From contig JAIKYB010000074.1 of the NCBI GenBank assembly GCA_024683675.1, forward strand, positions 680 through 64,679: DNA of 64,000 nt, written 5' to 3'. The notes under the pieces were generated by a model. It saw nothing but the letters and a program-made list of their open reading frames with translations, did no database searches and had not been told where the DNA came from. Source of the stretch: Treponema sp. (GTDB lineage Bacteria; Spirochaetota; Spirochaetia; Treponematales; Treponemataceae). Shown here piece by piece: positions 10,444-14,015 of this stretch (the stretch's first letter is position 1; the number at the start of each line of letters is the position of its first letter). The position numbers and the translations under genes are program-made.

Positions 10444-10833
10444 TTACATTGCATCGTTAAACATGTTGCCGATTGCCTTACGAATTCTCAATTTAAGGTT
10501 TACAATTTCTTCAGATGGGAATTGTTTTACTACCTGATTTGTAGATGAATCAACAACAGAAACAACTACCATATCAAGTTCTTTGTTCACATTGAACTGA
10601 AGCTTGTTACCTGCCACCATTTGTGACATTTTTTGTAATTCCTGAGAATCGGCCTTTACTTCGGCTAAAGTCTGTTCAAGATTTTGTGCTACTTGGGCTC
10701 CTGTGGGTGTTATGGATTTTTGCACTACAGCAGAGTTTTGTACAGCTGCCGCAGAACTTCTTAAGTTTTGTGATTTATAAAGAGTCTGGCCATCCATTGC
10801 CACATGAACCATAGAATTGCTGATTGTATTCAT
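10444..10833 (-). CDS. flaG: Flagellar protein FlaG
   Basis: LQFNVN...VVSVVD..TNQVVKQFPSEE; lies between flagellin and fliD. Confidence 0.9.
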   Translation of the reverse strand: MNTISNSMVHVAMDGQTLYKSQNLRSSAAAVQNSAVVQKSITPTGAQVAQNLEQTLAEVKADSQELQKMSQMVAGNKLQFNVNKELDMVVVSVVDSSTNQVVKQFPSEEIVNLKLRIRKAIGNMFNDAM

Positions 10834-10856
10834 AGTTCTCCTCCTTGAAAAACTAT
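10832..10856 (-). promoter_or_regulatory. Putative CsrA-binding hairpin over the flaG RBS
   Basis: AUAGUUUUUC-AAGGA-GGAGAACUAU stem with GGA in the loop, covering the SD and start codon. Confidence 0.6.
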
Positions 10857-10882
10857 AGGTATACAGCCTATAGAAACGTCCT

Positions 10883-10940
10883 AAAAAAAACGCGCAAAGT
10901 GAAAAGGGGAGGAAGGGGGGCGCACCCCTTCCTGCTTTTC
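10883..10940 (-). terminator. GC-rich stem-loop/terminator between flaB and flaG
   Basis: AGGAAGGGG/CCCCTTCCT stem with outer GAAAAG/CTTTTC pairing, U8 run downstream. Confidence 0.6.
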
Positions 10941-10990
10941 AAGAATAATTAAAAAGATGACATCCAGAAATCTCTTTAATTATCAATTTG

Positions 10991-11839
10991 CTATTGCAAA
11001 AGTGCAAGTACAGTCTGTGACTGTGAGTTTGCCTGAGCAAGCATTGCTGTACCAGCTTGTGTGAGAATCTGGTTCTTTGTGAAATCAACCATCTGTGAAG
11101 CCATGTCTGTATCACGGATACGGCTTTCAGCAGCCTGAGTGTTTTCAGCAGCAATATTAATGCCCTTTGCAGCAATTTCGAATCTGTTCTGATAAGCACC
11201 AAGATCAGCTCTCTGCTTTGTTACGTTCAGTAATGCCTGATCGATTGTAGCAAGAGTTGCGTTTGCTTCATCAGGAGATGAAATTGTAATCTGTTCATCG
11301 CCACCCTGAGCGCCCTTGAGTCCAAGAGCTGTTGCAGTCATTGTACCGATGAATACACGAGTGTTCTGGTCAACATTTGCACCTACCTGGAACTGCATAA
11401 TCTGTTCAGATTCAGCTCCAAAGCGTCCTGTCAACATATTCATTCCGTTGAACTGTGCTGTGCTTGCAATGCGGTCTACTTCAGCTACGAGCTGAGATAC
11501 TTCAACCTGAATCTGCATACGATCTTCATCGCTGTAGATTCCATTTGCAGACTGAACAGCAAGCTCACGAACACGCTGAAGAATGTCAGTTGTTTCGCTC
11601 AGATAACCTTCAGTTGTCTGAATGAAAGATACTCCATTCTGAATGTTCTTAGATGCCTGGTTCAAGCCACGAATTTGGCTGCGCATCTTCTCTGATACAG
11701 CAAGTCCTGATGCATCGTCTCCGGCGCGGTTGATGCGTTCACCAGAAGAAAGTTTCTCCATGTTTTTCATGATGTTGTCATTAGAAATGTTCAACACACG
11801 ATCAGCATAGAGCGAACTCATATTGTGATTAATAATCAT
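10991..11839 (-). CDS. flaB: Flagellar filament core protein (FlaB3-like by position)
   Basis: MIINHNMS...[30 protein letters not shown]; ESRIRDTD; MLAQAN. Confidence 0.97.
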
Positions 11840-12019
11840 ATTTTGTGCCCTCCATGTTTACTTAGCAAAACAGAACATCATGTTCTGTCCCTGCTGGTGA
11901 AGGCTAAATCAGCTCTGCGCCCCTGATTCAGTTTCAGACCATTCAGCAGGAGTAATAAGTTTAAATAACATTTAGACCTATTACTTCTGCTGTCACCGCA
12001 AGCCATGGTTTGCACTATA

Positions 12020-12053
12020 TTTCAAAGAACTATATGCCTCTGAAAAAGCATAT
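12020..12053 (-). promoter_or_regulatory. boxB-like hairpin plus boxA-like antitermination site
   Basis: AUAUGC..GCAUAU hairpin immediately followed by AGUUCUUUGAAA. Confidence 0.5.
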
Positions 12054-12120
12054 TTATTTGCTACATTATTTTACGATGTTTTGGAAAAAAATACCAGAGT
12101 AGGGCTAGGAAAACACCGCA

Positions 12121-12165
12121 TTAATTTTAGTCTGACTTACAAAAAGCTCATCAGACTAAAATTAA
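12121..12165. repeat. Perfect 15-bp inverted repeat with 15-nt loop
   Basis: TTAATTTTAGTCTGA (12121-12135) / TCAGACTAAAATTAA (12151-12165). Confidence 0.85.
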
Positions 12166-12175
12166 TTATATCTCA

Positions 12176-12230
12176 CTATCTGAGTAAAGACAAGACATTC
12201 TGTGAGCAGGCCCTTAGCCTGAGCCAGCAT
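12176..12230 (-). repeat. Recoded duplicate of the flagellin 3' end (MLAQA...SQNVLSLLR*)
   Basis: 41 of 54 nt identical to 12277-12330 plus a 1-nt insertion; 10 of 13 substitutions are synonymous. Confidence 0.85.
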
Positions 12231-12276
12231 TAGTCGCAGCAAGCTGCTAAACAATGCTGGAATCACATATTCTTGA

Positions 12277-13137
12277 CTATCTCAACAGACTAAGAACATT
12301 CTGTGACTGGCTATTAGCCTGTGCCAGCATTGCAGTGCCTGCCTGCTGGAGTACAGAATTCTTTGTGAACTCTACCATCTGGCTTGCCATATCAGTATCA
12401 CGGATTCGTGATTCAGAAGCCTGCATGTTTTCAGATGCAACATTCAAGCCCTTTACTGTAAGTTCAAGACGGTTCTGGTAAGCACCAAGGTCAGCTCTCT
12501 GTTTGTTGATCTTTTTGAGTGCTTCATCGATAGTTCCGATTGCGCGGTTGGCTTCTTCCGGTGTGGCAAGTGACAATTTCTCTGCTGTACCAAGATCGCG
12601 AACACCAAGTGCTGCTGCAGACATTGTACCAATGAAAACCTGTACTCTCTGATCCATATTAGCTCCGATGTGGAACCACATTGAACCTGTTACAGCATTT
12701 TCTCCAGCTGTCTGTGCGAAACGGCCAGTGAGCATGTTCATTCCGTTGAATTGAGCGGAACTAGCAATTCTATCAACTTCAGATACAAGAGCTGAAATTT
12801 CAACCTGAATCTGCATACGATCTTCAGAAGAGTAGATGCCGTTCGAAGCCTGAACTGCAAGCTCTCTGATACGCTGCATAATATCTGTTGTTTCCTGCAG
12901 ATAACCTTCTGTTGTCTGAATGAAACTGATACCGTTCTGAGCGTTCTGTGAAGCTCTGTTCAAACCGCGGATCTGGCTGCGCATCTTTTCAGATACTGCA
13001 AGTCCTGAAGCATCATCGCCTGCGCGATTGATTCTTTCACCTGATGACAGTTTCTCCATGTCTTTGTTAAGACTGAGACCTGTTACTCCGAGCTGACGAT
13101 TGGCAAAGATTGCCGACATGTTGTGGTTGATAACCAT
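12277..13137 (-). CDS. flaB: Flagellar filament core protein (FlaB1-like by position)
   Basis: 286 aa; [29 protein letters not shown], typical of treponemal FlaB. Confidence 0.97.
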
Positions 13138-13140
13138 AGT

Positions 13141-13181
13141 ATTCCTCCTTGGAATGTTATACAGAAGAATCCTTTCTTCTG
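13141..13181 (-). promoter_or_regulatory. Two CsrA-binding hairpins in the flaB leader
   Basis: CAGAAGAA-AGGA-UUCUUCUG (13162-13181) and AUUCC-AAGGA-GGAAU over the SD (13141-13155). Confidence 0.75.
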
Positions 13182-13306
13182 CTTAAAAAAGACGCAAAAA
13201 TGCGTAAATGTTGTTTACAAGGCTACATCTACACATTTTTGCCAGAATGAAACGGTCTGTTATATTCATTTAAAATATAGCTAGGGCCATAACATTTCTG
13301 TATTGA

Positions 13307-13335
13307 TTATCGGAGGGATACCGGTAAGAACTTTA
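13307..13335 (-). promoter_or_regulatory. sigma-28 promoter of flaB
   Basis: TAAA-17 nt-TCCGATAA; spacer longer than the canonical 15 nt. Confidence 0.7.
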
Positions 13336-13364
13336 GTGTTTTTTTTAAATTTTTTTGATTTTTT

Positions 13365-14015
13365 TTAGTTATTTATAATTCTCTTTAATGCTCTTACTGC
13401 TTTGCCTCTATGAGAGATTTCATTTTTTTCATCAGCACTTAGCTGGGCAACAGTTTTTCCAAATTCAGGCAAAAAAACTATAGGATCATAACCAAAACCG
13501 CCATTTCCGGCCTGCTGATTTATATCTTCTATAAGAGTTCCTTCAAAGGTTTCCTGGGCAACATAAAGTCTGTCTGGACCGCAATACATAACCATTGCAC
13601 AGGTATAATGACAGGAGCGGGGCCCATTAAGATACTCAGCCTTTGGTAGATTTCCTTTTTTTATAGCATCATTTAACTGATTAATGAGGAAAATATTCTG
13701 TTCTTCCTGAGAAATCTTACTGCCGTCTGGCTTTCCCTGCATAAATTCAGGACCAGCATATCTTGATGAATAAATGCCTGGAGCTCCTCCCAGAGCATCT
13801 ACACAAATACCTGAATCGTCTGCGATAACGGGACAGCCTACAATTTCATAAAGAGAGCGGGCTTTAATTAAGCTGTTTTCATAAAATGTTATTCCAGTTT
13901 CATCAGGATTAAAATCAATACCTTCATCAGAAGGAATAAGAATTGTATGCTCACTTAAAAGCTCGCACATTTCCTTTTTTTTATTTTTGTTTCCAGTAGC
14001 TAAATAAATTTTCAT
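13365..14015 (-). CDS. rdgB: Non-canonical purine NTP pyrophosphatase (RdgB/HAM1)
   Basis: ATGNKNK, ADDSG, PGIYSSRY, GFGYDP, KNEISHRGKA; start moved to MKIYLAT at 14015. Confidence 0.93.
   Translation of the reverse strand: MKIYLATGNKNKKKEMCELLSEHTILIPSDEGIDFNPDETGITFYENSLIKARSLYEIVGCPVIADDSGICVDALGGAPGIYSSRYAGPEFMQGKPDGSKISQEEQNIFLINQLNDAIKKGNLPKAEYLNGPRSCHYTCAMVMYCGPDRLYVAQETFEGTLIEDINQQAGNGGFGYDPIVFLPEFGKTVAQLSADEKNEISHRGKAVRALKRIINN

Follow-up and report, generated by a model that had tools for sequence, protein, structure and literature searches.

A flagellin gene end displaced from its gene and probably retained as the promoter of the next flagellin gene in Treponema

Introduction

The window, by which we mean the whole stretch of 64,000 nucleotides analysed here, belongs to a Treponema-type spirochaete assembly that is 80% complete, and carries two flagellin genes one behind the other on the reverse strand, labeled flaB_up and flaB_down. 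A short distance past the stop codon of flaB_up, its last codons appear a second time, in a different spelling and as non-coding DNA. Where does this copy come from, and what has kept it? The elements involved are the following:

12277..13137 (-), flaB_up, a FlaB-type core flagellin of 286 amino acids
12331..12277 (-), working 3' end of flaB_up, of the 'AGY' allele class, ..GTT CTT AGT CTG TTG AGA TAG
12279..12277 (-), flaB_up stop codon
12276..12231 (-), spacer of 46 nt from the flaB_up stop to the copy
12230..12176 (-), copy of 55 nt of the flaB_up 3' end, with its relic stop TAG at 12178..12176
10991..11839 (-), flaB_down, a FlaB of 282 amino acids

Judging from the sequences compared below, the copy is probably an ancestral gene end, retained as a promoter after the 3' end of the gene was replaced. 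Its survival is most likely explained by its last codons, which provide the -35 box of a conserved promoter serving the flagellin gene that follows.

Results

The copy and its match to the working end

A sequence-only reading of this DNA had described a recoded copy of the flaB_up 3' end, and the copy is present as described, base for base. A codon-by-codon comparison with the real end gives 10 synonymous changes, AGT to TCT among them, and three non-synonymous changes (AAT/AAG, AGC/GGC and CAG/CTG) which, together with one extra C, all fall within one central patch. The likeness is not due to chance: the local alignment of the 101 nt past the stop with the last 144 nt of flaB_up scores 54, while 1000 shuffled controls reach a mean of 14.5, with a standard deviation of 2.3 and a maximum of 27. 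The copy is unlike the end of the neighbouring flaB_down, as had also been remarked, and equally unlike the end of the third flaB, located at the end of contig C74. No second site for the copy and spacer was found in the 80%-complete genome, the sole other match being the adjacent real end.

The differences are unevenly spread. Over the MLAQA part, relic and real gene agree at 17 positions out of 18, and a neighbouring stretch of 17 nt has a single difference; none of the last five sense codons is spelled alike in the two, the TCT/AGT serine switch being one of the differences. The spacer segment AAGAAT..CCAGCA is collinear with the coding segment AAGAAT..CTCCAGCA, a weak homology (p about 0.02), which suggests that the relic extends through the 46-nt spacer up to the real stop:

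12176..12274 (-), putative relic of the ancestral flaB_up 3' end, about 99 nt in total, of which 12274..12231 would be the decayed 5' part

A small open reading frame in the copy, running from its ATG to a TAA 22 codons on, after the frameshift, was dropped because its start region is lost in the sister species, G090.

The copy is the resident end

The flaB_up-flaB_down junction was compared in 52 loci, or species, all of the same genus. The sequence of the copy turns out to be the true 3' end of the orthologous gene in 21 of them, which we call fused: there, TAG is the real stop, the ends read ..AAT GTC TTG TCT TTA CTn AGA TAG, and TATAAT follows 5 nt further on. In another 26 loci, called split and spread over about 12-14 clades, the same block is non-coding and lies 21-220 nt behind a newer stop. 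Compared with the 21 fused ends, the last 30 nt of the copy match at 27.2 positions on average, with a maximum of 29, while the working end of the window matches the same ends at only 20.2 out of 30. Of the two, the copy is thus the ancestral, resident end, and it is the working end that arrived later.

This reverses the idea that the copy was derived from another flagellin gene, since its orthologues are the real flaB_up ends in 21 sister species. Nor does any relative carry a full extra flagellin here, a possibility that the sequence-only reading had singled out: none lies between stop and relic in the 52 loci. Of the proposed neutral relic of a deleted tandem flagellin, one part stands, that the copy is a relic of a flagellin 3' end. 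The full gene is missing from the relatives, and neutrality is contradicted by the conservation, as non-coding DNA, of everything from TTGTCT onward in about 14 independent clades. An antisense or guide RNA directed at a paralogue agrees neither with the sense orientation of the copy nor with the lack of a matching paralogue in the 80%-complete genome, and a scar left at the attachment site of an integrating element is excluded by the spacer between the two copies, whose 46 nt can accommodate no element. For annotation purposes, the element is neither a small-RNA gene, nor an attachment site, nor a pseudogene of a lost paralogue.

A predicted promoter in the ancestral end

The conserved part of the copy coincides with a predicted promoter, P1:

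12165..12193 (-), P1, predicted sigma-70-type promoter, matching the consensus at 10 of 12 positions, with 17-nt spacing
12193..12188 (-), -35 box of P1, TTGTCT, formerly Leu-Ser codons, 4 matches out of 6
12170..12165 (-), -10 box of P1, TATAAT, 6 matches out of 6

The relic stop codon sits within the 17-nt spacer of P1, and transcription is predicted to start near 12158. The motif is present in 47 of the 52 loci, with a spacing of 17 nt in all but one of the 47, which has a 3-nt insertion in the spacer. In order to obtain a conservation profile of the split state, one split species was taken per clade (n = 14). Conservation is at least 90% at TTG.nT and at TATAAT; it drops to 45-65% in the middle of the spacer and to 30-50% just 5' of the -35 box, which makes for a sharp boundary at TTGTCT. 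The variants TTGTAT, TTGAGT, TATACT and TATTAT are tolerated; TTG and TAnnnT are unchanged in all 14 clades. The conservation of the intergenic element, a check that the sequence-only reading had proposed, thus comes out positive, the last 18 nt and TATAAT being retained across split clades. As far as an alignment can tell, this profile is the information profile of a promoter, and is unlike that of a coding relic. The motif occurs once in its own genome. Between the two flaB genes of the window, there is no strong consensus promoter other than P1, which is also the sole site with at least 10 matches out of 12 in most of these flaB-flaB intergenic regions.

One clade of five species (L014, L034, L035, L042 and L048) has lost P1 by deletion of the -35 box. 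All five have a strong site, TTAACA-17-TAYAAT, about 235-256 nt upstream of the flaB_down ATG; hairpin 1, described below, and the GCACGGTG helix are kept upstream of this replacement site. The motif is missing from two flaB2-type paralogues that are not followed by a flaB; these have a canonical terminator at their end.

Two other arrangements were observed. Locus L013 (G005:C105) has three tandem flaB genes, the second of which ends in a fused TTGTCA..TATAAT, with the hairpin and the same leader; this suggests that the whole module duplicates along with the gene. In L020 (G004) and L024 (G008), a canonical terminator with a T-run closes flaB_up and little is left of the long leader; about 140 nt before the next flaB there is a new TATAAT-type site. 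These loci represent a third way of rebuilding the junction.

When 251 genomes of the order were searched with a pattern for the fused form, it turned up in 24 of the 36 genomes belonging to the genus, in five more genera of the same family, and in 9 of 67 genomes from a second family; two further families gave no match. Outside the genus there are eight zero-mismatch matches, each of them exactly at a flaB_up-type stop and with a flaB_down-type gene 340-370 nt later. Since the fused motif is found across genera and in a second family, the arrangement is old, and the fused state ancestral.

We infer that P1 fires and serves flaB_down, presumably through a structured leader of about 320 nt (11840..about 12158). 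RNA data came from 24 public metatranscriptome runs with small shares of the sequence, four of which were compared with the window; the contigs (Logan) are short and mixed from many related species, and starts, ends and strand are not readable in them. An RNA dip at 11978..12131 was set aside as sequence divergence, not a finding.

The hairpins of the spacer

The part of the relic that lies 5' of the promoter contains two small predicted stem-loops:

12224..12260 (-), spacer hairpin in the flaB_up 3' UTR, with outer stem CCAGCATT/AATGCTGG and inner stem GCAGC/GCTGC
12207..12221 (-), second small stem-loop, CAGGCT-AAG-GGCCTG, from the minimum free energy fold and a comparison by eye with the real end

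The spacer hairpin, already pointed out from the sequence alone, is real: its outer arms, CCAGCATT at 12260..12253 and AATGCTGG at 12231..12224, pair and enclose GCAGC/GCTGC. Folding of the 256-nt region gives z = -4.9, and the spacers of split species are strongly folded in general, with a median z of -3.5 and 14 out of 17 below -2. A search of Rfam over 10800..13400, with E up to 5, returned only chance snoRNA matches. The hairpin derives from the coding quasi-palindrome CCAGCAG..TGCTGG, elaborated by the addition of about 11 bases. The window shares it with L039 and L052, and this same derived form, ..GCGACYAATGCT.., is found in two other clades. In the second stem-loop, the substitutions of the central patch may be what turned a stem with 5 pairs out of 6 into one with 6 out of 6, CAGGCT/GGCCTG.

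In G090, the arms of the spacer hairpin read GCCGGG/CCCGGC: local pairing is retained, and the match to its own coding sequence is lost. The hairpin thus appears to have been kept in this sister species by compensatory changes. Arms that pair locally and no longer with the real coding sequence argue against the proposed translation-coupled switch, which we abandon. The spacer hairpin is not an intrinsic terminator either: it has no U-tract, the next bases being CTCAGGCTAAGG, and the terminator scan does not call it; the window's spacer hairpins as a pair are likewise free of any U-tract. Their role would be to end, stabilise or insulate the upstream transcript ahead of P1.

A structured leader downstream of P1

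Structure is also predicted on the other side of the promoter:

12120..12166 (-), hairpin 1, a 17-bp stem of -22 kcal/mol that begins inside the -10 box
12073..12119 (-), helix 2, in which GCGGTGTTTT (12119..12110) pairs with AAAACATCGT (12082..12073)

Every relative has a long perfect hairpin at the position of hairpin 1, with a different sequence each time; in 46 of 47 loci, the stem starts between -6 and +5 when counted from where the -10 box ends. The general form of helix 2 is GCRCGGTG(T)n pairing with (A)nCAYCG 25-35 nt further on. Its duplexes have a mean energy of -10.6 kcal/mol when both strands are taken from the same species, versus -8.85 when they are taken from different species; none of 5000 permutations reaches the observed mean. 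Pairing the GCGGTG that follows hairpin 1 with a downstream CTTCACC was tried and gives no consistent scheme; it is replaced by the pairing of GCGGTGTTTT with AAAACATCG, and in the RNAalifold model the partner of CACC is a second GGTG, located at the foot of the long hairpin. The parts of the leader are then a hairpin plus GTTCTTTGAAA, the long hairpin, and a GGTG/CACC closing helix with 10-11 double changes.

As a whole, the flaB_down leader (11840-12120, minus strand) is a conserved, covarying RNA, for which Rfam has no match. It includes a hairpin with a TTTTCAGA-type loop (12053..12032), followed by a boxA-like AGTTCTTTGAAA (12031..12020).

Hairpin 1 and helix 2 are still present in the clade that has lost P1. 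Given that hairpin 1 includes bases of the -10 box and persists without P1, the intergenic RNA is probably produced by read-through from flaB_up as well, which could leave P1 partly redundant. The P1 transcript itself is expected to start inside the left arm of hairpin 1; it would escape the hairpin, or begin flush with a shortened stem.

Probable replacement of the gene end

The number of times that the two states were exchanged was estimated on a tree of flaB_up built without its last 105 nt. On this tree, the fused and non-fused states must have changed into one another at least 9 times; a count of the clades by eye puts the independent splits at roughly 12-14. The window locus is sister to G090. 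The window and G090 have in common with G128 and G112 a TAG-TC junction right after the stop.

A serine codon tells the two kinds of ends apart. The Ser of LSLLR is encoded by TCN in all 21 fused species, and by AGY in 24 of the 26 split species and in all 5 species without P1; over the whole gene, serine usage is 20 TCN versus 7 AGY. As TCT cannot become AGT by single synonymous steps, the working ends of split species represent another allele class.

Some species carry stacked relics. G146 has the 22-nt split state of its sisters plus a further 97 nt, and in G128 and G112 about 100 nt are added to the 36-nt split state found in their sisters. The coding sequences of G146 and its sister are about 97% identical except over the last ~45 nt, which show 13 differences in 42 positions; the G146 end is followed by a 56-nt foreign flank with two hairpins, and then by a near-intact copy of the sister's real end. 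The flank has no other occurrence in the genome of G146, which is 99% complete. Read against its sister, the end of G146 demonstrably came in as foreign DNA; it did not arise by duplication and subsequent drift. Neither the genome of G146 nor that of G128 contains its imported block a second time, and no donor for the window's own lineage was found in its own genome; conversion by a paralogue of the same genome is unsupported as a source.

The scenario that we favor would thus run as follows. In the ancestor, as in many relatives today, the last codons of flaB_up would double as the promoter of flaB_down: TTG TCT, the Leu-Ser of LSLLR, would be the -35 box, the stop would fall in the 17-nt spacer, and TATAAT would lie 5 nt past the stop. 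Before the window lineage and G090 separated, a different flagellin 3' end would have been placed upstream, through recombination with a diverged allele or else through a short duplication after which the allele was replaced. The previous end would then have turned non-coding, with its last 18 nt and TATAAT under selection as a promoter, and the part 5' of the promoter, free to decay, would have been reshaped into the two small stem-loops of the flaB_up 3' UTR. What looked like synonymous recoding would then reflect two copies of different allele classes, one held by protein function, the other by promoter function and recency.

There is also a chance, which we put well short of even, that the split architecture is itself a horizontally spreading allele. 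The cassette would consist of a new flagellin 3' end, a stop, a hairpin and a short MLAQA-coding stub. Being homologous to any flaB1-type gene on both sides, it could enter by unequal homologous recombination between the stub and the resident end, and every entry would turn the resident end into another relic before the fixed promoter. If this were true, the intergenic region would be a layer-by-layer record of flagellin exchange among rumen-type treponemes. The stacked relics, which have two layers in G146, G128 and others, record in any case past recombination at the flagellin locus.

Discussion

Other explanations for the conserved block

The retained promoter has to be weighed against three other readings of the same block. 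It could be an RNA signal, for processing, protein binding or 3'-end formation, in a bicistronic flaB_up-flaB_down transcript, and no promoter at all. Covarying structure extends from the -10 box, with hairpin 1, through helix 2 and the helices of the leader to the ATG, which implies that an RNA crossing the region exists; hairpin 1 and helix 2 outlive the -35 box in the clade that lost it; and flaB1 and flaB3 are co-transcribed in T. denticola (PMC9481697). Within the block, however, conservation is concentrated in two hexamers at a fixed spacing of 17 nt, and the variants follow the information profile of sigma-70, with TTG and TAnnnT invariant. In the five cases out of five in which the block is lost, the loss coincides with a new consensus promoter downstream. 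RNAalifold does pair UUGUCUUUA with the Shine-Dalgarno region, but this pairing of the -35 box involves invariant columns only, and was therefore left unused; it is without covariation, contains many G-U pairs, and would not survive in the TTGTAT variants that are tolerated. We thus hold an RNA signal to be unlikely, while giving it more weight than the two readings that follow.

That the copy is a recent short tandem duplication, not yet decayed, and owes its promoter-like look to an accident of the LSLLR codons, seems improbable. The 5' half of the copy is dispensable, since it is deleted or replaced in G090, the central patch has decayed, and a tandem duplication is consistent both with the 101-nt length of the unit and with a junction directly behind the stop. 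Uniform drift after duplication would, however, hardly leave five divergent codons beside 17 nt with one difference, nor would it keep the last 18 nt and TATAAT in about 14 split clades, some of which have fully diverged spacers and flanks. Very nearly as improbable, and a shade more so, is the proposal that the relic is kept as a substrate for recombination, a right-hand homology arm for the exchange of split alleles or flagellin 3' ends between strains or paralogues. The junction made of the hairpin, GCGACYAATGCT and the MLAQA-coding bases is found in three separate clades, twice stacked on older relics, and the 17/18 identity of the MLAQA part would serve such exchanges. Selection for future recombination is an implausible maintaining force, though; the MLAQA part is lost in G090, and no recombinant or donor copy exists in the window's own genome, in G146 or in G128. 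In view of the recurrence of the hairpin-plus-MLAQA junction in three clades, the homology arm of the sequence-only reading has something to be said for it as a by-product, though not as the main reading.

Relation to known systems

Sigma-70 promoters internal to operons and embedded in the coding end of the upstream gene are known in bacteria. The retained promoter resembles them in having its -35 box in the last codons of the upstream gene, its -10 box just past the stop, and a next gene in the same direction. It differs from them in that the overlap, of the type seen at the window, fixes codons of a near-universal flagellin motif across two families, and in that it was broken at least about 12 times by a new gene end, the old one becoming a free-standing promoter. 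Homology-facilitated illegitimate recombination, the one-sided homologous import described in natural transformation of Acinetobacter and pneumococcus, offers a parallel for G146, whose diverged block (about 40 nt of coding end and the 56-nt foreign flank) has homology on its left and a right joint at an arbitrary point inside the resident gene end; the parallel comes from G146, the junction of the window lying instead right after the stop.

As in genomic islands inserted at tRNA or tmRNA genes, a working 3' end stands upstream and a displaced older copy downstream; unlike them, the flaB junction has no integrase or element, its insert is only 22-200 nt long, and the copy is retained for a regulatory signal. 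As in the escape from adaptive conflict, one sequence had two functions, and two copies then shared out the protein code and the regulatory code; here the unit is no whole gene, only its final few dozen bases, and the new copy was seemingly imported and is not a true duplicate. Coding and regulatory signals would thus have been carried by the same bases, then uncoupled repeatedly and independently, and in our reading the uncoupled coding end switches allele class each time. The parts are ordinary; repeated uncoupling together with stacked relics is an unusual variant.

For regulation, the prediction is that the flaB3-type flagellin has its own sigma-70 promoter in the last codons of the flaB1-type gene, in at least two families. 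The upstream gene has a site of another type:

13306-13336 (-), sigma-28-like site 5' of flaB_up, CTAAAG, 17 nt, (T)CCGATAAT

The flaB of contig C74 has a comparable sigma-28-like CTAAAC..CCGAAAAT upstream (L002, about 985-1020), so that CTAAA..CCGAWAAT precedes both genes; a search by eye found no sigma-28 site for flaB_down. In T. denticola, flaB2 is under sigma-28, and flaA and the flaB1-flaB3 operon are under sigma-70 (PMC9481697). The two systems have in common FlaB paralogues under two promoter types, and a flaB1-like gene directly upstream of a flaB3-like one; in the genus studied here, unlike in T. denticola, the sigma-28-like site is on the upstream gene and the sigma-70-like site on the downstream gene. 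This predicted layout differs from the T. denticola operon model, in the description of which a promoter inside the 3' end of a flaB1-type gene is not mentioned (PMC9481697).

Two minor observations concern the surroundings. Contig C74 (L002, G000:C74:1-5) stops 2 nt past the stop codon of the third flaB, which may be an assembly break at a repeat. The 3' side of flaB_down (10823-10873, minus strand) repeats the layout of terminator then promoter: a terminator-like hairpin with a T-run is directly followed by a promoter-like site, TTTTCA-17-TACAAT, before a gene of 129 amino acids.
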